Positions 29,003 through 43,634 of a DNA stretch of 64,000 nucleotides are shown one piece after another. Below the pieces are notes generated by a model. That model searched no databases. It saw nothing but the letters and a program-made list of their open reading frames with translations, and was not told where the DNA came from. Source of the DNA: a virus. The DNA lies in IMG/VR virus record IMGVR_UViG_3300045988_091582; one strand, written 5' to 3'. The position numbers were made by a program, and so were the translations under genes. Positions within the stretch are counted from its first letter, which is position 1, and each line of letters opens with the position of its first letter.

Positions 29003-29038
29003 AATCCCTGGGCTATTATTATAGTTCAGGGATTTTTG
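29003..29038 (+). terminator. rho-independent terminator
   Basis: AATCCCTG..CAGGGATT stem followed by TTTTTG. Confidence 0.55.
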
Positions 29039-29058: not shown

Positions 29059-29904
29059 ATGGGAATTTTTAGTAATTTTTTAAAAGAAAACAAAAAAGAA
29101 CAAAAGCCTTTAATAACTATAGATAAAGAATTATCTAAGTTAGCGGTAGATTTAGTAGTGGTTTCAGAAGGCACAGCATTAGTTCCTTTAAAATCTAATG
29201 ATTTGTCTGGAGAATATGCCAGATTATGTGGATTAGGATTAGACAATAGTGCAAATGCCAAATTCTTAAAAGACAGAATGCGTGATATTGATGCATATAA
29301 TAGAAATATTATAAAAGCTCGTGAGTTATTAAATTATATAAAGACTGTAAATGAGTTTTTAGGAGACTCTGTTATATTAGTTAGTAGACCTTCTTTTTAT
29401 AAATTATGCCGTAAGTATGAATTATCTATTGGACGTCTTGAACAGTTTACTGGAGTTATACCTGATGATAATTTAAAAGAATTATCTGATATGGATAATT
29501 ACTCTGGTTATGTAAAATTAGACACAAACAAAAATATGGTGAGAATTATAAAAATATATAACACCAGTGATAAGAGTGATTCTGATATTCGTAAATGCCT
29601 AGATTATAACTTTAATATTGTTCCAGGTCATGGTACTGTATATAATATGAACTATATTGAAGGGTTTGAAAATGAGAAATGGGCTGAAGCAGTAGGTTTA
29701 GATGTGCATTATATGCGTAGGGACGAAGTGTTTATAGCTTGTCCAAAATCAAATCTACAAGAGAAAGTAGTTATAGTTTCTCACCCTGTAGACCCAATAA
29801 TATTTCAATATTGTCCTTTTGGAGTATTGATATATACTATGTGGGGAAAAGAAGCTGAAGATAAAGTATTTGAAGAATATAAAAAGTTAAGAGCTATAAA
29901 ATAA
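29059..29904 (+). CDS. hypothetical protein
   Basis: Track ORF 281 aa. Confidence 0.5.
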   Translation: MGIFSNFLKENKKEQKPLITIDKELSKLAVDLVVVSEGTALVPLKSNDLSGEYARLCGLGLDNSANAKFLKDRMRDIDAYNRNIIKARELLNYIKTVNEFLGDSVILVSRPSFYKLCRKYELSIGRLEQFTGVIPDDNLKELSDMDNYSGYVKLDTNKNMVRIIKIYNTSDKSDSDIRKCLDYNFNIVPGHGTVYNMNYIEGFENEKWAEAVGLDVHYMRRDEVFIACPKSNLQEKVVIVSHPVDPIIFQYCPFGVLIYTMWGKEAEDKVFEEYKKLRAIK

Positions 29905-30009: not shown

Positions 30010-31164
30010 ATGGGTAAACAAATTTGGTTACAAGATGGCAATATTTTTAGTCAGGGCAGTGCTACAACAGTATCTCATCCTGAAGGATTACCGAAAGGTA
30101 TTTATGAAGTAAAACTCTCAATGACTGGATTTTATTTAAGTAAAATCGCTGAGTCTTTTACGTTTGATTACAAACTGTATGGTCTAAACCAGAAATTTAT
30201 TGATTATGTCTTAAAGACATATGAGAACACTACAGGAAATTTAGGTGTTCTGCTAGATGGAATCAAAGGAACTGGTAAAACAGTCACCGCAAAGGAATTT
30301 TGTAATCGTTTACAGCTTCCTGTAATCTTAGTACAATCAATGGGCAGTGATACTAATAGTAAATTAATAAAATATTTATCTACGTCTATTGATTTTGACT
30401 GTATCTTCTTCTTTGATGAATATGAGAAAGAATTTAAAAATTCTTCCGATGTTCTTTCTTTTATGGATGGTACTTATAACTCTATTTATCGTAAGGTATT
30501 TTTACTTACTACTAATGAGTTAAATGTAGACCCAAACCTTCTTGGTAGACCTTCTAGAATAAGATATAAAAAGTCTTTTAATAATCTTTCAGAAGAAGTT
30601 ACTAGAGAAATTCTTAACGATATCTTGGAAGATAAAACTGCTATAGAAAAAGTTATAGAGTTAACTCATTCTATGAATATTATTACTATAGATTTAATTA
30701 AAGCTATAGCTACTGAAATTAATATTCATGGAGTAGAAGCTCTTCCTGATATTAAAGAGACCTTTAATATTGAGTTTTCTAGATTTTCTTATTTATATAG
30801 AGAAGTACAAGTTAGACATTGTGGCTTGAAATTTACTCCTGAAAATATAAATAATTTATTGAAAATTTATAATCAGTATAGAGAACTTAAAAAGAAAGAT
30901 TGGGAAAATCGTTCTCACGAAGAAAAAGAATTCTGTAACGAATGGTCTTCTAAGTTCAGTGAAGATTATGGTTCTACTACTGAAGATAAAGAATTGAAAT
31001 ATCTAGAGACTGGAGACTATTTTGTAGATGATCGTATATTAATGGTAAATATTGCAGAAAAGTATGTAGTAACTATGACTGATTATGGATATATTAGAAT
31101 ATATTTAATTAATAGTTGCTATTCTACAAGTAAAGCTACAGGTCTTGTAAATTATAAATTATAA
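30010..31164 (+). CDS. AAA+ family ATPase
   Basis: Walker A GIKGTGKT, Walker B IFFFDEYE, arginine-finger-like LLGRPSRIRY. Confidence 0.65.
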   Translation: MGKQIWLQDGNIFSQGSATTVSHPEGLPKGIYEVKLSMTGFYLSKIAESFTFDYKLYGLNQKFIDYVLKTYENTTGNLGVLLDGIKGTGKTVTAKEFCNRLQLPVILVQSMGSDTNSKLIKYLSTSIDFDCIFFFDEYEKEFKNSSDVLSFMDGTYNSIYRKVFLLTTNELNVDPNLLGRPSRIRYKKSFNNLSEEVTREILNDILEDKTAIEKVIELTHSMNIITIDLIKAIATEINIHGVEALPDIKETFNIEFSRFSYLYREVQVRHCGLKFTPENINNLLKIYNQYRELKKKDWENRSHEEKEFCNEWSSKFSEDYGSTTEDKELKYLETGDYFVDDRILMVNIAEKYVVTMTDYGYIRIYLINSCYSTSKATGLVNYKL

Positions 31165-31243
31165 AAAAATAAATGCCCCCTTGTAATTAACATCAGTTAG
31201 TTCTTAGATATTTAATTTTTATTATTTAAACATTTACAAATTT

Positions 31244-32797
31244 ATGGAACATTTAGTTCTTATTGGTGTTGTCGCAGTCGCTATTATTGTACTGCTTGTT
31301 ATTATTGCTACAATGTATGTTAAAGCTCCTCCTTCGATGGCATACATTCTTTCAGGTTTTCGTAAGGAGCCACGAGTACTTATCGGTAATGGTGGAGTAA
31401 AAATTCCTGTACTTGAGCGATTGGATAAAGTATATCTTGGTCAAGTAACAGTTGATGTTAAGACTTCACAGCCAGTCCCTACTCATGATTTCTTGGATGT
31501 AATGGTAGATGCCGTATGTAAAGTTAGGGTAAAACCTGATACAGAAGGCACTAGACTTGCAGCTAAGAACTTCTTGAATATGAACTCTGTTCAGATTGCT
31601 GCTCAGGTAAAAGATTCTTTGGAAGGTAATATGCGTGAAGTAGTAGGCTCTCTTGACTTGATTAAAATTAACACTGATAGAGATGCATTCTCTGATGAAA
31701 TTCAGAAGAAGGCAGCTCCTGATATGGCTAAGTTAGGTCTTGAGATTTTGTCTTGCAATATTCAGAATATTACTGATGAGAAGGGCTTGATCCGTGATTT
31801 GGGTGCTGATAATACAGCAGCTATTCAGAAGAATGCTAAAATTACCCGTGCTAATGCTGATAGAGATGTAGCTAAGGCTCAGGCTGAAGCTGACAATGAG
31901 GCTAATGAAGCACGAGTAAAAGCTGACACCATTATTGCTGAACGTAATAATGAGTTAGCTATTAAGAGAGCTGAACTGAAGAGATTGTCTGATATTAAGA
32001 AGGCTGAATCTGATGCTGCATATAAAATTCAGCAACAGGAGCAGCAGAAGACTATTAATATCAAGACTGTAGATGCTGATATTGAGAAGACTCGTATGGA
32101 ACAGACTTTGTCTGAGGAGAAGATCAAGATTAAGCAGAATGAGTATCTTGCAGATGTAAATGCTAAGGCTGATGCTGATAAGTATCAGACAGAGATTGAT
32201 GCTCAGGCTGCTTTGGAGAAGCAGAAGCGTGAAGCTGAGGCAGAAGCTTATAAAGCAGAGCAGGCTGCTAAGGCTGTAAAAGCTAAAGCTGAAGCTAATC
32301 GTTATTCTCAGGAACAGGAAGCAGCAGGTATTCGTGCTAAGGGTGAAGCTGAAGCATATGCTACTCAGCAGACTATGACTGCTGAGGCTGCAGGTATTAA
32401 AGCTAAGCTTTTAGCAGAAGCTGAAGGTGTTAAGGCTAAAGGTCTTGCAGAGGCTGAAGCTATGCAGAAGAAGGCTGAGGCTTACAGTAAGTATGGTCCA
32501 GCGGCTATAATTGATACTATCTCAGATCTTTATAAGGATGTTCTTCCTGATATGGCTAAGCATATTGCAGAGCCTATGAGTAAGATTGGTAGTATGACAG
32601 TTTATGGTACCAATGGTACTGAGGCTTCTGGTATTTCAGGTAATGTACCTGCTGTTATCAAACAAACTCGTGACATGGTAAAGGATGCCACAGGTGTAGA
32701 TATGGCAGAAATTATGAAGGCTAACACTATTGAAGCTAAGGTTAACAAGAATGTTAACGTTAATGGCGACGTAGAGAACACCAACGTAAATGTGTAA
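31244..32797 (+). CDS. SPFH/band-7 (flotillin-like) protein
   Basis: N-terminal TM helix, SPFH-like core, long Ala/Glu/Lys-rich coiled coil; higher-GC gene. Confidence 0.6.
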   Translation: MEHLVLIGVVAVAIIVLLVIIATMYVKAPPSMAYILSGFRKEPRVLIGNGGVKIPVLERLDKVYLGQVTVDVKTSQPVPTHDFLDVMVDAVCKVRVKPDTEGTRLAAKNFLNMNSVQIAAQVKDSLEGNMREVVGSLDLIKINTDRDAFSDEIQKKAAPDMAKLGLEILSCNIQNITDEKGLIRDLGADNTAAIQKNAKITRANADRDVAKAQAEADNEANEARVKADTIIAERNNELAIKRAELKRLSDIKKAESDAAYKIQQQEQQKTINIKTVDADIEKTRMEQTLSEEKIKIKQNEYLADVNAKADADKYQTEIDAQAALEKQKREAEAEAYKAEQAAKAVKAKAEANRYSQEQEAAGIRAKGEAEAYATQQTMTAEAAGIKAKLLAEAEGVKAKGLAEAEAMQKKAEAYSKYGPAAIIDTISDLYKDVLPDMAKHIAEPMSKIGSMTVYGTNGTEASGISGNVPAVIKQTRDMVKDATGVDMAEIMKANTIEAKVNKNVNVNGDVENTNVNV

Positions 32798-32811
32798 ACA
32801 CTAAGTATCAC

Positions 32812-32842
32812 AGAGGGAGGGAATAATCTCTCCCTCTTTTTC
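32812..32842 (+). terminator. rho-independent terminator
   Basis: AGAGGGAGGG-AATAAT-CTCTCCCTC + TTTTT. Confidence 0.65.
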
Positions 32843-32859
32843 TAACTTTTAAAAATTTT

Positions 32860-34893
32860 ATGGAATACTTAGATTTTAGAAATCTTGTTACAGAAGCATG
32901 TAATAAGATGATTAAAGAGAACAAGCATCTCTTTATTCTTGACACTCAAAAAGAATTTTTATGGATGGCTTATATGGAATCTTTCCCTGAAGGAGCCGTA
33001 CGTCAAGAATTTAACTGTGTAAATTGTAAACATTTCATTACTCGCTATGGAGTATTAATCTCTGTGGATGAGAACTATAAAATACATTCTTACTGGGAGG
33101 ATGTTCACGCTGAAGGAATGTTTGCTAAAGTTGTAGATAATATGTTACAAGTGCTTAAAAATACTAAAATTAGAAATGCATTTGTTACAGAAGAGACTAC
33201 AATGGGTTGTAAATGTAATCAGCAGATACTACCTTCTAAAGAAATAATTACTTGGAACCATTTTTATGCTACTCCTACACGTAATTTAATTATGGATAAG
33301 TCTCAGACTCCAACATTCCGTGCAGGTGCTAAATCTTCACATGATGTATGGGTAAGAACTTTATCTGAAATTAATTATAATTCTGTACAAACAGTATTAG
33401 ACTTAATTGCAGATGATAATCTTTATAGAGGTGACACTTATCTGCGTCAAGTGAGTGCTTTAAAGACTGCTCTTGATACAATAGAGAGTAAGCACTTGGA
33501 AGGTTTTGAATTAGATAATTATGCTTGGATATCTTCCTGTGTACTTCCTGATGCTGTAACACATATACTTAATAGTGCTATAGGTCAGCTTCTTAAAGAT
33601 ATAACTGATACTAACAATGTTGAAAGTTCAGTTAAGAAGTTTGAAGCTATGGTTGCTCCTTATAATTATAAGAGACCTAAAGGTATTATCACCAAAACCC
33701 AGGTAGAAAATGCTTATAAAACTGTAGTAGAACTTGGTTATGAAGATTCTTTAGAAAGACGTCATGCTAAAGTAGAAGATATATCTATTGAAGATGTTAT
33801 CTTTGTAAATAGAGAAACTCGTAAGAGAATGTTAGGAGGATTTGATTCTCTTATGAATGAAACTTCTAATACTAGCAAAGCTGCTACAGATTTTGAGAAG
33901 ACTGCTATTCCAACAACTATGGAAGAGTTCCTTAATAATATTGTTTCTAAGGCTAGTAAGCTTGAATTATTCTTTGACAATAAGTTAAATAATAATTTAG
34001 TAACTCTTACTGCTCCAGTCAATAAAGAAGCTCCTTCTATGTTTAAATGGACTAATGGTTTTGCTTGGGCATACAATGGTAATATCTCTGATGCTATTAA
34101 ACAACGTGTAAAAGAAGTAGGAGGTAAGGTAGATGGCTATATGAGAATCTCTCTTCATTGGTATAATTACGATGATTTGGATTTACATATGATAAGTCCT
34201 TATGGACATGTCTGCTACAATAACAAATGTAACTTACTTGATGTAGATATGAATGCCTGTGGAGGTAGCGCCTCTGCAGAACGTGAGTTCCCTAAGAAGT
34301 TTTCCCGTGATGCTGTAGAAAATATCATTTTCTCAGGAATTCCTAAAGCAGGTACTTATAAAGTATTTATTAACAACTTTGAAAAAGTTGAAAATATTGA
34401 TTTAGGATTTGAAGTAGAAGTAGAACTCAATGGAGTTGTTCATACTTATGTATATAACAAAGATATTCCTGATAAAAGTGATGTTTCAGTATTAGACTTT
34501 ACTTCTAATGGACGTGAAGTTATCTTTACTAAGGAACATTTAAGTAGTACTACAGCATCTAAAGAAATTTGGGGAGTAAAGACTCAGAACTTCGTTGAAG
34601 TATCTGCTATATGCTTATCTCCAAATTACTGGGGAAATAATAAAGTAGGTGCTAAGCACTATTTCTTTATGTTAAAGGATTGTAAGAATCCAGATGCTGT
34701 TCGTGGATATTTTAATGAGTATCTTAAAGACGAACTCACTAAGAATCATAAGAGAGTATTTGAAGTATTAGCATCTAAAGCTTTAACTCCTTATGATGAT
34801 AATCAGATGAGTGGTTTAGGATTTATAGCAACTTCTCGTAACCAAATTATGGTTAGAGTAGATTCAGGTAAAATTTATAAAGTAAACATTTAA
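32860..34893 (+). CDS. large hypothetical protein (677 aa)
   Basis: Track ORF; CVNCKHF Cys cluster; GGKVDGYMR resembles a KxDG nucleotidyltransferase motif, but this is weak. Confidence 0.5.
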   Translation: MEYLDFRNLVTEACNKMIKENKHLFILDTQKEFLWMAYMESFPEGAVRQEFNCVNCKHFITRYGVLISVDENYKIHSYWEDVHAEGMFAKVVDNMLQVLKNTKIRNAFVTEETTMGCKCNQQILPSKEIITWNHFYATPTRNLIMDKSQTPTFRAGAKSSHDVWVRTLSEINYNSVQTVLDLIADDNLYRGDTYLRQVSALKTALDTIESKHLEGFELDNYAWISSCVLPDAVTHILNSAIGQLLKDITDTNNVESSVKKFEAMVAPYNYKRPKGIITKTQVENAYKTVVELGYEDSLERRHAKVEDISIEDVIFVNRETRKRMLGGFDSLMNETSNTSKAATDFEKTAIPTTMEEFLNNIVSKASKLELFFDNKLNNNLVTLTAPVNKEAPSMFKWTNGFAWAYNGNISDAIKQRVKEVGGKVDGYMRISLHWYNYDDLDLHMISPYGHVCYNNKCNLLDVDMNACGGSASAEREFPKKFSRDAVENIIFSGIPKAGTYKVFINNFEKVENIDLGFEVEVELNGVVHTYVYNKDIPDKSDVSVLDFTSNGREVIFTKEHLSSTTASKEIWGVKTQNFVEVSAICLSPNYWGNNKVGAKHYFFMLKDCKNPDAVRGYFNEYLKDELTKNHKRVFEVLASKALTPYDDNQMSGLGFIATSRNQIMVRVDSGKIYKVNI

Positions 34894-34905
34894 TAATTAA
34901 CAACA

Positions 34906-35274
34906 ATGTACAAAGAAGCATTACAGAAGAAATTACGTTTTAAGACAAACAAGGGTATGATTACTACAGAAGATTTGTTCGACTTATCTCTGCAGAATCT
35001 TAACACTTTAGCTATCATGCTGGATAAGAAGATTAGTGAGGCTCCTAAGAAGTCTTTCATTGAAGAGCTTCCAGCTGAAGAAAATGATGATGAACTTCGT
35101 TTCAGCATCGTAAAAGATGTAATTAATATTAAATTAAAGGCTCGTAAAGACAATATTAATAGAGCCCAGATTGATGCTCGTAACAAACGTATTGCTGAGC
35201 TTATCGCAAAGAAAGAGGACGAAGTTCTTGAGAATAAATCTATTGAAGAGCTTCGTGCTATGATTCAAAATTAA
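34906..35274 (+). CDS. hypothetical protein
   Basis: Track ORF 122 aa; acidic/coiled-coil. Confidence 0.45.
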   Translation: MYKEALQKKLRFKTNKGMITTEDLFDLSLQNLNTLAIMLDKKISEAPKKSFIEELPAEENDDELRFSIVKDVINIKLKARKDNINRAQIDARNKRIAELIAKKEDEVLENKSIEELRAMIQN

Positions 35275-35402
35275 AATTTTTAAGATTTTATTTTTAGAAA
35301 AAAAATTCACAACTATAATAACATCAGTAATAAGGAATACTTATTGAACGTTGTGAAACGTGAATTATAGTCGTGATAATTAAAAGGAAACTCAATCTTT
35401 TG

Positions 35403-35432
35403 AGGGGACTCTATTTAGAGTCCCCTCTTTTA
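35403..35432 (+). terminator. rho-independent terminator
   Basis: GAGGGGACTCTATTTAGAGTCCCCTC + TTTT. Confidence 0.65.
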
Positions 35433-40082: not shown

Positions 40083-40306
40083 ATTATCAAAAAGCTAGTC
40101 AAGTATCTTTATTAGTAGAATTGGTTAAATCTTCTGAAATAGTGTCTAAAGAATATTCTGAAGCACGTATACCAGAAGATTTAATTTCTAATATAAAGAT
40201 ATTGTGTATGAAAGATAGTAGTTTTAGAAGAAGTTTCTATAGTATAATGCAGAAACTTGGAAAGAAATATTTAGATATTTATATAAATAAATTATCAGAG
40301 TTATGA
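40079..40306 (+). CDS. hypothetical protein
   Basis: Track ORF 75 aa. Confidence 0.4.
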   Translation: MNYQKASQVSLLVELVKSSEIVSKEYSEARIPEDLISNIKILCMKDSSFRRSFYSIMQKLGKKYLDIYINKLSEL

Positions 40307-40806
40307 ACTTAGTTTGGCTAAAATTAATAAAGCGAATCTTAACTCATAAGTATTATGTTGCTAAATATTGTTTTCAAATAGGATTATATTGGCAAGGTAT
40401 TACTCATGATTTATCTAAATTTAGTTTTACAGAATTCTCAAGAGCTATTAAGTACTGGGATGATAATATAAGTTCATTAGCAAATGAACGTAAAATATTA
40501 GGATATAGTCAAACATTCCTTCATCATAGAGGACGAAATCCTCATCATTATGAATATTGGATACATTCTTTAGATGATGGAGGAGTTCCTGCTAGAATGC
40601 CTAAAAAATATGTTTTAGAACTTATATGTGATTATTTAGCGGCAGCTAAAACATATGGAGCTGACCCTAGAAAAGAATATACATGGTGGGCTAAACAACA
40701 ATCTCATATGAAAATCCACAAAGAAACTAAGGATTATATAACTGAAGTGTTTTATAAATATAGTATAGGTTTAACATTAAAAGAATCAATTAATGGAAAT
40801 TATTAA
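40303..40806 (+). CDS. hypothetical protein, possible HD-type metal-dependent hydrolase
   Basis: Track ORF 167 aa; His-rich motifs ITHDLSKF and LHHRGRNPHHYEYW; assignment weak. Confidence 0.4.
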   Translation: MNLVWLKLIKRILTHKYYVAKYCFQIGLYWQGITHDLSKFSFTEFSRAIKYWDDNISSLANERKILGYSQTFLHHRGRNPHHYEYWIHSLDDGGVPARMPKKYVLELICDYLAAAKTYGADPRKEYTWWAKQQSHMKIHKETKDYITEVFYKYSIGLTLKESINGNY

Positions 40807-42346
40807 TGCAACTGATGGCTACAAGCTTGGTCATCATCGTATGTACCCAGAGGGTACACAAATGGTTTATAGTAACTGGACTCCTAGAAGTAATCGTTAC
40901 TTCCCAGAAGCTACAGAAGGTTCTGTAGTATTTGGTATTCAGTACTTTGTAAAAAAGTATTTGATAGAGGAATTTAACGAATGGTTTGTTCTTCCTAAGG
41001 AAGAAGCTATTAAACAGTTTTCTTATCGTGTAGGTAACTTTGTAGATATTAATCAGGTTGGAACAAAGCATATTGAGGAGCTTTATGATTTAGAATATCT
41101 TCCTATTGAAATTAAAGCTCTTCCTGAAGGTTCTATCTGTCCTATAAGAGTACCTATGATGACTATTAAAAATACTCTTCCTGATTTCTTCTGGTTGACT
41201 AATTATTTGGAGACTCTGATTAGTTGTACTCTATGGCTTCCTTGTACTTCTGCAACAAGTGCTCGTCTTTATAAGAAGAGACTTATGGAACATGCTAAAA
41301 AGACTGGATTCCCAGAAGATGTAAATTTAGGCTTCTCTTGTCACGATTTTTCAATGAGAGGTATGGCAGGACTTGATGCATCTGTTATTTCAGGTATGGC
41401 TCATATGACCTCATTCTGTGGTAGTGAAACAATTCCTGCTATCGAAGCAGTAGAGCATTATTATAATGCAGATGTTACTAAAGAACTCGTAGCTGCAACT
41501 GTTCCGGCTTCAGAACATTCAGTAATGTGCGCAGGGGGTGAAGATGGCGAGATTGAAACATATCGTCGTCTTATTAATGATCTATATCCAACAGGTATTA
41601 TCTCAATAGTATCTGATACTTGGGATTTCTGGCAGGTAGTTGAGAAATTCTTGCCTAAGCTTAAAGCAGACATTATAAAGCGTAATGGTCGAGTAGTAAT
41701 TCGCCCTGATAGTGGTGATCCAGTAGATATTATCTGTGGTCTTCGTACAAATCCTCATTACCACACTGCGATGAAGGAAGGTAAGTATTACTGTGATTTC
41801 AATCCATTTATGGATGATGATGAAAGTCATTATGTAGAAGTATCTGAAGGTCAGTATTATGGAGCATATTATATGCTAGGTAAAATCTTTGGATGGAATA
41901 CTACAGTAAATGATTATCGTTATCCAAGCACTAAGATTGGATTGCTTTATGGAGATTCTATCACTCTAGAACGTCAACGTGATATCTATACCAGATTAGA
42001 GAGTGCTCATATGGCAGCTTGTAATCTTGTTCTTGGTATTGGATCTTACACTTATCAGTTTAAGAGTCGTGATTCTTTAGGATTCGCAGTTAAAGCAACT
42101 GCTTGTATAATTAATGGCAGACTTATAGAAATTTATAAGCATCCAAAGACTGATGATGGAACGAAGAACTCTCTCAAAGGTCTTATTAGAGTTGAAGAAG
42201 AGAATGGTAAGTATGTCGCTTATGACCAGCAGACTAAGGATGCAGAACTGCAAGGTTGTCTTAAAACAATCTTTGTAGATGGAGAATTAGTAAGAGAATA
42301 TTCTCTTTCTGAAATTCGTGAACGTGTAAATTCAACATTAGTATGA
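40793..42346 (+). CDS. nadV: nicotinamide phosphoribosyltransferase (NAMPT/NadV)
   Basis: 517 aa; N-terminal ATDGYKLGHHRMYPEGT.MVYSN...R.. and overall length match the NAMPT family. Confidence 0.7.
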   Translation: MEIINATDGYKLGHHRMYPEGTQMVYSNWTPRSNRYFPEATEGSVVFGIQYFVKKYLIEEFNEWFVLPKEEAIKQFSYRVGNFVDINQVGTKHIEELYDLEYLPIEIKALPEGSICPIRVPMMTIKNTLPDFFWLTNYLETLISCTLWLPCTSATSARLYKKRLMEHAKKTGFPEDVNLGFSCHDFSMRGMAGLDASVISGMAHMTSFCGSETIPAIEAVEHYYNADVTKELVAATVPASEHSVMCAGGEDGEIETYRRLINDLYPTGIISIVSDTWDFWQVVEKFLPKLKADIIKRNGRVVIRPDSGDPVDIICGLRTNPHYHTAMKEGKYYCDFNPFMDDDESHYVEVSEGQYYGAYYMLGKIFGWNTTVNDYRYPSTKIGLLYGDSITLERQRDIYTRLESAHMAACNLVLGIGSYTYQFKSRDSLGFAVKATACIINGRLIEIYKHPKTDDGTKNSLKGLIRVEEENGKYVAYDQQTKDAELQGCLKTIFVDGELVREYSLSEIRERVNSTLV

Positions 42347-42837
42347 TAGAAATTGTTAATGGAGATTTACTCCAATCAAATTTACCTCTTATAGCTCATC
42401 AAACTAATTGTTTGGGAGTAATGGGAGCAGGTATAGCTAGATCTATTAAAAATAAATGGAATATTGTATATACACAATATGTTGATATCTGTAAAACTTT
42501 TGAATATTCTAAAGATTTATTAGGTAAATGTCAAGTATGTGTAACTGAAGAATTACCTATTAGATTTGTAGCTAATTTATTTGGTGAATATTCTTTTACT
42601 GAATCAGTAGCTCCTTTTGAAAATAGACATACTGATTATAATGCTCTTAAAAAAGCTTTGTTAAATTTAAAAGCTTTTTGTGAAGACGAAGAAGTAACAG
42701 AAGTAGGTATTCCTTATAAATTAGGATGTGGATTAGCAGGTGGAGATTGGGATGGAGTAGTTTATCCTATGCTACAAGAACTTTTTGCTAATGATTCAAC
42801 AATAACTCTTTATATTTATAAATTATGCAACAATTAA
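42343..42837 (+). CDS. macro-domain protein (ADP-ribose binding/processing)
   Basis: 164 aa; IVNGDL...IAHQTNCLGVMGAGIA matches macro-domain NAAN..LGGGGV.GAI. Confidence 0.55.
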   Translation: MIEIVNGDLLQSNLPLIAHQTNCLGVMGAGIARSIKNKWNIVYTQYVDICKTFEYSKDLLGKCQVCVTEELPIRFVANLFGEYSFTESVAPFENRHTDYNALKKALLNLKAFCEDEEVTEVGIPYKLGCGLAGGDWDGVVYPMLQELFANDSTITLYIYKLCNN

Positions 42838-43634
42838 ATTTAGTACATCTAGAAGATAGTGATATTAAATATTCTATCTCTAGATTTCCTGATGGTGAAG
42901 TTCAAATTTCATTAGAAGAATTCAGTCATAAAGAGCAAGTATTAGTTAAATGTAGAATTACTAATGCTGAAGACTTGTTTATACTTATGCAAGTTTTAGA
43001 TATTCTTGATAGACATGAAGTTCTGTATAAGTTAAATATCTATTATTTAATGAGTATGAGAATGGATCGAGTAATGGATTTCAATAGACCTTTTACTTTA
43101 AAAATAGTCTTAAATTCGCTAAAAAATTGTAATGCAGACGTTATTAAAATCTTAGAACCTCATTCTGATGTTTATTATGATTTTAGATTTGGAAGAAAAT
43201 TTACTGAATTATATATAGGAAATAGTCTTTCAAACACTGTATGGAATGATTTTCAAATGGTTCTTCCAGACGCAGGAGCTAAAGAAAGATATGATTTCCA
43301 ATTTAATAAAACTGCACTTACTTGTAGTAAAGTCCGAGACTTAACTACAGGAAAGATTTTAGAAATTAAAATAGATAATCCTGAAGTAATTAGTGATAAA
43401 CCTCTATTAATTCTTGATGATTTGTGTGATGGTGGAGGAACTTTCTGTGGTATTGCTAAAGCGTTTAATGCTTTAGATATTCCTAAAGAACGTTTAAATA
43501 TTGCAGTTACTCATATGGTAAATCCTAAGGGTATAAAGAATTTGTCAGAAAACTTTAATCACGTATGGTTTACTAACTCTTATAAAGACTGGGACAATCT
43601 TCCTGAGAATGTTACAATGTTAAAGGTTATCTGA
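42825..43634 (+). CDS. prs: ribose-phosphate pyrophosphokinase (PRPP synthetase)-like
   Basis: 269 aa; RFPDGEVQISL N-terminal motif and PRPP-binding loop LLILDDLCDGGGTF. Confidence 0.6.
   Translation: MQQLNLVHLEDSDIKYSISRFPDGEVQISLEEFSHKEQVLVKCRITNAEDLFILMQVLDILDRHEVLYKLNIYYLMSMRMDRVMDFNRPFTLKIVLNSLKNCNADVIKILEPHSDVYYDFRFGRKFTELYIGNSLSNTVWNDFQMVLPDAGAKERYDFQFNKTALTCSKVRDLTTGKILEIKIDNPEVISDKPLLILDDLCDGGGTFCGIAKAFNALDIPKERLNIAVTHMVNPKGIKNLSENFNHVWFTNSYKDWDNLPENVTMLKVI

Follow-up and report, generated by a model that had tools for sequence, protein, structure and literature searches.

Organization of the locus

The locus is a mosaic of catalogued gene families, and we consider it probable that three modules make it up: a gene for a 281-aa protein (p281) together with a gene for a soluble AAA ATPase, a captured flotillin gene, and a DUF8224 gene together with its small partner of PHROG 2018. 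It lies in a 64,000-nt stretch of viral DNA (hereafter the window) and is part of the early/middle region of a large (at least 120 kb) uncultured gut phage, whose host is probably a member of Bacteroidales. The identities of the genes, the pattern of their synteny, the foreign origin of the flotillin gene and the fold of an insert in the DUF8224 protein are documented below.

The three central ORFs, all on the plus strand, occupy positions 30010–31164 (ATPase, 384 aa), 31244–32797 (flotillin, 517 aa) and 32860–34893 (DUF8224, 677 aa). The intergenic gaps of 79 nt (ATPase/flotillin) and 62 nt (flotillin/DUF8224) agree with the first-pass annotation, which had described three co-oriented genes with short gaps. 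On the same strand, p281 (29059–29904) precedes the ATPase gene and the 122-aa partner (34906–35274) follows DUF8224.

Between positions 28.5 and 36 kb we found eight terminator-like sites, compared with 2.1 ± 1.8 in shuffled sequences. Three plus-strand hairpins among the terminator-like features delimit units of the locus. The first (29003–29034; a 14-bp stem and a T-tract) closes the upstream unit just 5′ of p281; the second, a strong one (32812–32837; an 11-bp stem with six G-C pairs, then TTTTT), separates the flotillin stop codon from the DUF8224 start; the third (35402–35427; an 11-bp stem with seven G-C pairs) closes the unit of DUF8224 and its partner. From the T-tract of the second hairpin to the DUF8224 ATG (32860) only ∼15 nt are left, so DUF8224 would be read either by read-through or from a promoter located farther upstream. 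Since this leaves no space for a promoter, at least partial co-transcription of the genes is probable. A scan with a sigma-70 promoter model gave no hits above the level of shuffles; this model is probably wrong for a phage of Bacteroidota.

Farther along the window, 5–8 kb downstream, there is an NAD/ADP-ribose cluster composed of DUF5662, NAMPT-like, Macro-domain and Prs-like genes. In a close relative the corresponding position is taken by a Sequestin/Tad2-like gene. Between strains the locus varies in flotillin length, in presence or absence of p281 and in a homing-endonuclease insert.

The AAA ATPase and p281

The product of the first central gene (30010–31164, plus strand) is a classical-clade AAA ATPase of PHROG 2376 (phrog_2376, E-value 1.2e-50) with a single AAA module at residues ∼78–215. 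The match to Pfam AAA (PF00004) covers residues 80–184 (E-value 3.9e-10; 40.7 bits, cutoff 21.2), while the N- and C-terminal regions match no family. We located Walker A (G84-IKGTGK-T91), Walker B (I132-FFFDE137), the sensor-1 residue N169 and, within the string GRPSR, the arginines R180 and R183. Residues G84, G87, G89, K90, N169, R180 and R183 are invariant in an alignment of seven sequences that includes divergent members; D136 and E137 are invariant among four closer homologues. The earlier reading of a classical AAA module with Walker A/B motifs and an arginine-finger-like GRPSR is thus confirmed.

In a profile search against PDB the top matches were NVL, p97 and NSF (E-values 1e-8 to 1e-6). 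Like p97/Cdc48, NVL and NSF, the window ATPase has Walker A/B, sensor-1 and the arginines of the second region of homology; unlike them, it has one AAA module flanked by unmatched N- and C-terminal regions and lacks the aromatic pore-loop residue, and the matches are weak. The sequence SMGSD is aligned to M-W-F-G-E-S of p97 D2, with no aromatic pore loop 1. As the aromatic residue is missing, the ATPase may not thread substrates. The 384-aa protein has no hydrophobic segment, and Pfam identified the AAA module alone, with no peptidase family (M41 included). The protein would be a hexameric ATP-driven protein remodeller, which with p281 would form the first module. PADLOC returned just weak P-loop matches to IetA (E-value 5.9e-6, residues 79–147). 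No group I intron was found in an Rfam search of the ATPase insert. We also rejected orf156 of Cba120 as an ATPase homologue, as it is a 5-hmdU DNA kinase.

The p281 protein (29059–29904) has no match in Pfam, PHROG, PADLOC or NCBIfam, and its AF2 model, built from a shallow alignment, is unusable (pLDDT 45). Its gene is a recurrent neighbour of the ATPase gene, situated within 1.1 kb of it in 7 of 8 and in 11 of 11 loci where both genes occur. In another group of phages p281 paralogues are found on both sides of DUF8224, and in loci L018–L034 p281 is located between DUF8224 and the small partner.

A flotillin of cellular origin

The protein encoded at 31244–32797 (plus strand) is a flotillin-family SPFH protein. 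It starts with a hydrophobic membrane segment (residues 1–33, by Kyte-Doolittle), followed by Band_7 (residues 29–206; E-value 9e-21, 75.1 bits against a gathering cutoff of 23.6), an Ala/Glu-rich stretch and a Flot domain (residues 380–478; E-value 4.5e-11, 43.4 bits against a gathering cutoff of 27). The first-pass annotation had described a membrane-anchored SPFH/band-7 protein with a long coiled coil; the anchor and the domains hold, and the coiled coil, read from Ala/Glu-rich composition, is putative. Against the NCBIfam FloT equivalog (NF058507) the score of 252.7 bits falls below the cutoff of 700; judged by these scores, the protein is a member of the flotillin family and not a FloT equivalog.

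The window flotillin is 63–68% identical to chromosomal flotillins of Bacteroidales/Paludibacteraceae and of Clostridia metagenome-assembled genomes (MAGs), and one cellular homologue is situated in a Bacteroidota chromosomal context. Homologues were found in just 11 phage records; in close relatives of the phage the protein measures 408–517 aa. The gene is richer in GC than those around it (GC 0.403 and GC3 0.292 versus 0.285 and 0.179 for the ATPase gene), and both values are unusual for the phage. The best explanation of this sequence evidence is capture from a Bacteroidota-type host lineage and insertion, with its own hairpin terminator, between the genes for the ATPase and DUF8224.

Comparison with bacterial flotillins (FloT/FloA) reveals the same features (a membrane segment, SPFH, an Ala/Glu-rich stretch and Flot). 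The window protein differs from them in being encoded by a phage, in varying in length among relatives and in having no NfeD-type partner gene in the 64-kb window. By analogy with bacterial flotillins, it would enter the cytoplasmic membrane via the N-terminal hydrophobic segment and oligomerise via the Ala/Glu-rich stretch and the Flot domain; the resulting scaffold may give stability or order to the host membrane in the course of infection.

SPFH genes of sister phages

In sister phages, the region a few kb upstream of this ATPase encodes an unrelated SPFH protein of 600–660 aa (phage-type SPFH; ∼25% identity to the window flotillin), which PHROGs do not capture. At least 228 viral contigs matched it; MT835492.1 had no match. 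Its partner in 111 of 113 loci is a 172-aa membrane protein (2–3 TM) whose gene ends less than 200 nt upstream, and other genes spanning 0.6–7 kb separate this SPFH from the ATPase. Neither gene of the pair occurs in the 64-kb window, where the flotillin would fill the niche held in sister phages by the 172-aa membrane protein and the 600–660-aa SPFH protein.

The arrangement resembles NfeD-SPFH operons in that a membrane protein (2–3 TM and a C-terminal soluble part) is encoded directly upstream of SPFH; phage csAssE-Sib has the same layout. Unlike NfeD, the sister-phage protein has no Pfam NfeD match, which makes the likeness architectural only. The window itself also differs from NfeD-SPFH operons: it has no membrane-protein/SPFH pair, and the gene upstream of its flotillin encodes the ATPase.

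An SPFH gene was found near the ATPase family in 46 of 80 ATPase-anchored loci and, conversely, in 46 of 80 SPFH-anchored loci; two unrelated SPFH types and several clades are represented. Selection for a partnership of SPFH and ATPase could explain this recurrence, as opposed to a genome layout inherited from a common ancestor. With two unrelated types recurring near one ATPase family in gut phages, a looser functional link between SPFH and the ATPase is conceivable.

A stronger form of such a link goes back to the first-pass annotation, which pointed to the partnership of bacterial SPFH proteins with AAA proteases (HflK/C with FtsH) and suggested that the trio could remodel host membranes, exclude superinfection or act against host defence. 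In this form the genes would make up a single membrane-associated machine, a phage analogue of HflK/C-FtsH. A cage of SPFH protein would recruit the ATPase or surround it, p281 and the DUF8224 pair being its clients or effectors, and the machine would control the integrity of the membrane, the timing of lysis, the exclusion of superinfecting phages or the evasion of defence. Recruitment of two non-orthologous SPFH types near the same ATPase family would fit such a machine. So would the co-directional genes with no space for a DUF8224 promoter, as well as the gene order of one locus (L060) where SPFH, two tiny ORFs, the ATPase, DUF8224 and the partner follow each other within 6 kb. The SPFH gene of the window also adjoins a classical-clade AAA gene, as expected from the analogy. 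However, the analogy fails on the ATPase side: unlike FtsH, the window ATPase has no TM helices, no M41 protease domain and a degenerate pore loop lacking the aromatic residue. The SPFH side differs from HflK/C as well, for the window protein is of flotillin type and single, not an HflK/HflC pair, and adjacency to the ATPase is seen in one clade only. Against a single machine also stand the other constant partner of the phage-type SPFH and its distance from the ATPase, and many clades have one of the two genes without the other (ATPase without SPFH in L082–L096, L026, L110 and others; SPFH without ATPase in L156–L160 and L230–L235). In addition, hundreds of phages have DUF8224 with neither the ATPase nor SPFH nearby. 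We regard the machine as rather unlikely and prefer the mosaic of three modules.

SPFH/flotillin genes are common in large uncultured gut phages, with a host flotillin as the substitute in one clade. The recurrence of phage SPFH genes suggests active management of host membrane organisation, a subject on which the literature open to our searches had no study.

The DUF8224 protein and its small partner

The 677-aa protein (32860–34893, plus strand) belongs to PHROG 1735 (phrog_1735, E-value 1e-198, residues 1–675). Homologues at 95–41% identity bear a precomputed assignment to PF26675 (DUF8224), a model that was not in the Pfam set we searched; this set gave no match at E ≤ 0.1, and NCBIfam gave none. 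The family comprises ∼8400 clusters at 50% identity and appears to be confined to phages, being absent from apparent bacterial chromosomes.

The protein can be divided into an N-terminal region (residues 1–∼300), a middle region, a TerD-like insert (∼430–605) and a C-terminal core segment (606–677). No sequence or profile match to PDB was found at E ≤ 10, and the best Foldseek match of the model to PDB had an E-value of 0.07. The N-terminal region is confidently modelled and has no PDB analogue; in BFVD the matches are all uncharacterised viral proteins, one of them from a giant virus. The insert, in the predicted structure, adopts the TerD β-sandwich fold, and residues D441, D461, D463, E487 and N488 are conserved and make up candidate acidic motifs of a Ca2+ site. 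Unlike TerD (PDB 2kxt, 2qz7) and YfaP/DUF2135-type domains, the insert has no Pfam or PDB sequence match and sits inside a larger core for which PDB offers no similar fold. Short variants of DUF8224 lack the insert. Structure prediction, suggested along with the first reading, gave a fold for the insert and no PDB match for the N-terminal region. We propose that DUF8224 is a soluble multidomain protein, consisting of this core and an inserted TerD-like β-sandwich of the Ca2+-binding type.

A nucleic-acid enzyme, either an RNA polymerase or a KxDG ligase/capping enzyme, is a very improbable identity for this protein. Homologues in two GenBank records (phages Seu621 and Arace01) are labelled ‘DNA-directed RNA polymerase’, the string KVDG is present (residues 423–426) and Foldseek gave weak matches to T4 RNA ligase 2 (E-values 0.14–0.4). 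The Foldseek probabilities, however, are 0.12 or lower, and sequence searches of Pfam, NCBIfam and PDB returned nothing, even with a profile. We rejected the polymerase label, which has neither sequence nor fold support, and the KxDG ligase motif, as K423 is not conserved (the consensus residue is N). The large uncharacterised protein with KVDG and Cys clusters reported at first pass is real and conserved and does contain the string, but neither K423 nor most of the cysteines are conserved; C53 and C56 are the sole near-invariant Cys residues, and even these are absent in two lineages.

The small charged partner (122 aa; 34906–35274, plus strand) belongs to PHROG 2018 (phrog_2018, E-value 7e-32) and is a near-constant neighbour of DUF8224: 35 of 36 viral loci and all six MAG loci have it on the downstream side, no more than 1.1 kb away. 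The pair is also present in Ackermannviridae and in Cba120, phiCbK, Ma-LMM01 and many metagenomic phages. Downstream of N-terminal-only variants of DUF8224 (Xanthomonas MET13-T1, Ralstonia RP13) there is an ORF of ∼150 aa, a candidate counterpart of the partner. We infer that DUF8224 works jointly with the partner. In isolate phages the neighbours of DUF8224 are replication and nucleotide-metabolism genes, and its gene context across unrelated phages is loosely suggestive of nucleotide/DNA metabolism or host takeover.

A place for the DUF8224 pair, the flotillin or both among counter-defence or exclusion genes of a variable accessory region, rather than among metabolic or structural genes, seems unlikely to us. 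The nearby NAD/ADP-ribose cluster, the Sequestin/Tad2-like gene of the close relative, the strain-to-strain variation and the apparent confinement of DUF8224 to phages would all agree with such a role. Yet PADLOC gave no match for the flotillin, DUF8224, the partner or p281, and for the ATPase only the weak one to IetA; the neighbours in isolates are of the kinds just named; and a large architecture, uniformly ∼670 aa long and shared by thousands of clusters from many host phyla, resembles in our judgement a core function more than a host-specific counter-defence.

The DUF8224 pair is among the larger phage-only gene pairs of uncharacterised function. Given its presence in tractable model phages (CBA120/ViI-like, phiCbK), this function can be tested directly by genetics.

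Gene order in related and unrelated phages

The ATPase, flotillin and DUF8224 genes are syntenic in relatives down to ∼75% DUF8224 identity, judging by ATPase and flotillin genes on contigs of matching length; the order itself was directly seen in L061 (78%) and L065–L068. The expected conservation of the trio therefore holds within one clade of uncultured gut phages; beyond this clade the trio dissolves. Among 36 DUF8224-anchored loci, 35 have the small partner, 9 the ATPase and 3 an SPFH gene, and SPFH adjoins DUF8224 in the window clade only. The loci derive for the most part from uncultured phages that are related, and one large metagenome supplied many of them, so the counts here and above do not represent independent events. 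Among isolates, where DUF8224 is found in hundreds of phages, taxa with the ATPase and taxa with DUF8224 barely overlap.

In three loci (L026, L138 and L146) DUF8224 and the partner come straight after the ATPase, with SPFH absent; this order fits insertion of a cassette in the window clade. The mosaic as a whole does not correspond to a described system, as had been suspected at first pass: PADLOC detected just the weak IetA P-loop, and searchable literature had nothing on phage NfeD/SPFH modules and nothing relevant on DUF8224, PF26675, DUF2135, protein accessions or csAssE.

A more far-reaching interpretation is that an SPFH scaffold acting with a soluble AAA ATPase (and p281) is a requirement of large gut Bacteroidales phages, and that they have recruited the scaffold twice, once as the membrane-protein/SPFH pair and once as a host flotillin; with the DUF8224 pair these would constitute a previously unrecognised membrane-remodelling or quality-control apparatus. 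We hold this to be quite doubtful; all biochemical activities considered here are inferred.

In favour of the mosaic, just 6 of 54 loci have an AAA+ or DUF2201 gene at 3 kb or less from DUF8224. A pair made of a MoxR-like AAA+ gene and a DUF2201 gene (vWA-like/putative metallopeptidase) adjoins DUF8224 and its partner in Alteromonas AD45-P1 and Pseudomonas Arace01; the window itself has no MoxR/DUF2201 pair, and the N4-like phage Ea9-2 has AAA/MoxR/DUF2201 genes without DUF8224. Counting against the mosaic, four unrelated lineages (the window clade, L026, AD45-P1 and Arace01) have AAA+ genes of three families beside DUF8224 and its partner.

Genomic context of the locus

The three ORFs listed in the first-pass annotation were found at exactly those positions, all on the + strand: an AAA ATPase gene (30010-31164, 384 aa), a flotillin (SPFH) gene (31244-32797, 517 aa) and a gene for a 677-aa protein (32860-34893), separated by gaps of 79 nt and 62 nt, respectively. 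The window is AT-rich (GC 0.296), almost all of its genes have the same direction, and it also has genes for replication and a cluster for NAD salvage; the stretch with the three genes is 93.6% identical to MT835492.1 (121.6-kb unannotated ‘Bacteriophage sp.’ record from human faeces). From these features we place the window in the early/middle region of a large, uncultured phage of the gut.

All components can be assigned to catalogued families (classical AAA, flotillin, and DUF8224/PHROG 1735 with PHROG 2018). The three genes had been described as an operon that could remodel host membranes, exclude superinfection or act against host defence; per-gene HMMs run over ORFs of 241 fetched loci revealed a clade-specific juxtaposition instead of one conserved system. 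No known system, HflK/C-FtsH included, fits once the defining features are checked.

DUF8224 and its small partner

PHROG 1735 matched the 677-aa protein end to end (E 1e-198), and its homologues are assigned to PF26675 (DUF8224) in Pfam. By tblastn, 522 phage records proved to contain the family, from Ackermannviridae (Cba120 among them), phiCbK-like phages, Bacillus phages, Ma-LMM01, Cellulophaga phages and others; an exhaustive profile search produced 8,421 clusters at 50% identity (E ≤ 1e-3); nearly all of the best 150 of these clusters have lengths of 640-700 aa. When 185,579 species genomes were scanned with a sequence pattern, six matches emerged, all in MAG contigs, mostly of phage-like length (30-186 kb; one is a short 8-kb fragment) and all six with the same small gene downstream. 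The family thus looks phage-restricted, within the sensitivity of such a scan.

The small gene encodes a 122-aa PHROG 2018 protein (34906-35274 in the window). Of the 36 DUF8224-anchored viral loci, 35 have it no more than 1.1 kb downstream of DUF8224, as do 6/6 MAG loci, Cba120, phiCbK and Ma-LMM01; in Cellulophaga phi17:2 the distance is 3.6 kb. The conserved unit is therefore DUF8224 with this partner, a pair of note for its size and constancy. An SPFH gene adjoins DUF8224 in the window clade only (3/38 loci). AAA+ or DUF2201 genes were located within 3 kb of DUF8224 in 6/54 loci from four lineages, with ATPases of three families: PHROG 2376 in gut phages, a MoxR-like ATPase with DUF2201 in Alteromonas AD45-P1, and a PHROG 10440 AAA protein with a MoxR-like ATPase and DUF2201_N in Pseudomonas Arace01. 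The N4-like phage Ea9-2 carries the latter ATPase set but no DUF8224. Taken over all these loci, the ATPase link is recurrent but optional.

Other neighbours of DUF8224 in unrelated phages include ribonucleotide reductase (phi17:2 and MET13-T1, the latter also with PNK and ligase), thymidylate synthase, RecA and NrdA (Ma-LMM01), clamp loader, MazG and 5-hmdU kinase (Cba120) and NAD genes (Vibrio 11895-B1 and the window). On this basis we lean weakly towards a role of the pair in nucleotide/DNA metabolism or host takeover, possibly Ca2+-dependent via a TerD-like insert in DUF8224.

That insert is evident from ∼540-aa variants of Xanthomonas MET13-T1 and Ralstonia RP13, which lack residues ∼430-605 in a broad alignment; the TerD-like region is thus an insertion into a conserved core. 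Residues invariant in all 20 aligned sequences include Y38, H134, R300 and E620. The KVDG segment singled out in the first-pass annotation did not hold up, as K423 is not conserved; as to the Cys clusters, a CxxC is present at 53-56 and two lineages lack it. The protein, described there as uncharacterised, could be given a family; its AF2 model (pLDDT >90 at residues 1-∼270, mixed after) found nothing in the PDB with Foldseek, and a BFVD search returned uncharacterised viral proteins only.

One distant BFVD match is a giant-virus protein (A0A1V0SEF2, Indivirus ILV1, 624 aa; Foldseek E 1.2e-7, 11% identity), so that, judging from the model, the fold of the core may not be confined to phages. 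Separately, a 13-nt tandem duplication (AAAACTCAGGTAG) frameshifts the DUF8224 homologue of one related locus (L007:8834-8846), and split DUF8224 ORFs were also seen in L045, L051, L056, L073, L074 and L081; the genes may truly be inactivated, or the breaks may be assembly errors from one large metagenome.

The ATPase and p281

The ATPase exceeds the gathering score of Pfam AAA (E 3.9e-10) and matches PHROG 2376 (‘ATPase’; E 1.2e-50). Its Walker A (G84-T91), Walker B (I132-E137), sensor-1 (N169) and R180/R183 within GRPSR are kept in aligned homologues. The best hits of a PDB profile search, NVL, p97 and NSF, were weak (E 1e-8 to 1e-6); PADLOC and NCBIfam gave matches to IetA only, confined to the P-loop. 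The 384-aa protein has no hydrophobic segment and no Pfam protease domain, and the sequence at the pore loop 1 position, SMGSD, lacks the aromatic residue on which threading relies. Members of the family are found in 391 phage records, chiefly of rV5-like, Enterococcus, Bacillus, Staphylococcus and Lactobacillus phages.

A 281-aa protein, p281 (29059-29904), is encoded within 1.1 kb of the ATPase in 7/8 and 11/11 loci having both. Its family shares the motifs FTGVIP..N and FIA.P...DPI.FQ...WG.EA.D. Two to three p281 paralogues flank DUF8224 in another group of loci (L018-L024, L030, L032, L034), one of them sitting between DUF8224 and the small partner (e.g. L020:1115-1981, 3998-4936). The ATPase is probably a soluble hexameric remodeller, with p281 perhaps its co-worker.

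In several near-identical relatives (L046, L048, L051, L052, L059, L077-L081 and MT835492.1) the ATPase gene is split by a 0.3-1.3-kb insert directly after GIKGTGK. The L046 insert (5733-7019), whose site corresponds to ∼30280 of the window within the codons of Walker A, encodes a 254-aa product with HTH and LAGLIDADG domains (LAGLIDADG_3, 25.8 bits). It looks like a homing-endonuclease intron within P-loop codons; Rfam detected no group I intron in it.

Transcription signals

This stretch has more terminator-like hairpins than its shuffles (8 versus 2.1 ± 1.8). The positions of the strongest, before p281 (29003-29034), between flotillin and DUF8224 (32812-32837) and after the small partner (35402-35427), suggest p281-ATPase-flotillin and DUF8224-partner transcription units. 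Only ∼15 nt separate the T-tract of the middle hairpin from the DUF8224 start codon, so DUF8224 is probably expressed by partial read-through. A sigma-70 promoter scan gave no more matches than in shuffles, the model being probably wrong for a Bacteroidota phage.

Origin of the flotillin and a second SPFH type

The flotillin exceeds the gathering scores of both Band_7 and Flot, scores 252.7 bits with NCBIfam FloT (far below the equivalog cutoff) and starts with a hydrophobic segment (residues 1-33). Beyond the phage clade, its closest relatives (63-68% identity) are cellular flotillins in MAGs of Bacteroidales, Paludibacteraceae and Clostridia. One of them, P0197 (67%), comes from a 254-kb contig, where its gene is flanked by NADH-dehydrogenase-type genes on one side and a Por_Secre_tail-domain gene on the other, which we take as the setting of a Bacteroidota chromosome. 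GC and GC3 of the phage flotillin gene are 0.403 and 0.292, compared with 0.285/0.179 for the ATPase gene and 0.322/0.201 for the DUF8224 gene; homologues were detected in just 11 of 50,697 phage records, several as short fragments, and length varies from 408 to 517 aa among close relatives. Taken together, these data lead us to conclude that the flotillin was captured from a host, probably not long ago.

By analogy with bacterial SPFH proteins, the flotillin would embed itself in the cytoplasmic membrane and build a scaffold; it could keep the membrane working or organise membrane-bound steps up to lysis. SPFH proteins are described as building oligomeric rings and domes on membranes (PMC12624060) and as having a part in membrane surveillance and repair (PMC8581546).

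An SPFH gene lies within 10 kb of the ATPase in 46/80 ATPase-anchored loci. In 31 of these 46 it is of another type, a 600-660-aa protein encoded 0.6-5 kb upstream, with a Band_7 domain only, 46-53% identity among phage clades and ∼25% to the window flotillin. Conversely, the ATPase is found 2-7 kb downstream of this phage-type SPFH gene in 46/80 SPFH-anchored loci. A looser SPFH-ATPase relationship appears to us rather unlikely. In 111/113 loci a gene for a 172-aa protein with 2-3 hydrophobic segments ends <200 nt upstream of the phage-type SPFH gene, a layout resembling the NfeD-SPFH operon; Pfam NfeD was not confirmed for the 172-aa protein. Both genes are absent from the window, and phage-type SPFH has no match in MT835492.1.

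In the nearest outgroup, L060 (60% DUF8224 identity), the genes run membrane protein, phage-type SPFH, two tiny ORFs, ATPase, DUF8224 and partner; in L026, L138 and L146 the ATPase, DUF8224 and partner have no genes between them. In the simplest history, ATPase-DUF8224-partner was the contiguous ancestral order, and the window clade later acquired a flotillin cassette of host origin and dropped the older SPFH pair. Both the widespread, apparently unstudied SPFH modules of gut phages and this one replacement by a host flotillin are of note.

The two-gene module, with the gene of a ∼170-aa membrane protein first and that of a 570-660-aa SPFH protein second, is widely distributed among uncultured phages of the gut (matches in at least 228 viral contigs; e.g. 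L156-L235 and L149, phage csAssE-Sib 120146-122373), with marginal PHROG assignments (weak phrog_200 matches) or none. One locus of a sister clade has a 140-aa ORF between phage-type SPFH and ATPase (L107:8807-9229) with a match to the fungal tRNA-ligase cyclic phosphodiesterase domain (E 6.7e-8).

Downstream genes

At 40303-43634 the window carries DUF5662, NAMPT-like (NAPRTase + NAMPT_N), Macro-domain and ribose-phosphate-pyrophosphokinase-like genes, a cluster presumably resembling the NARP1-type counter-defence pathway by which phages reconstitute NAD+. A baboon-gut relative (78% DUF8224 identity) has, about as far downstream of DUF8224 as this cluster, a gene with Sequestin/Tad2-like Pfam matches of the anti-Thoeris type (L061:17092-17784), which suggests a variable counter-defence spot.
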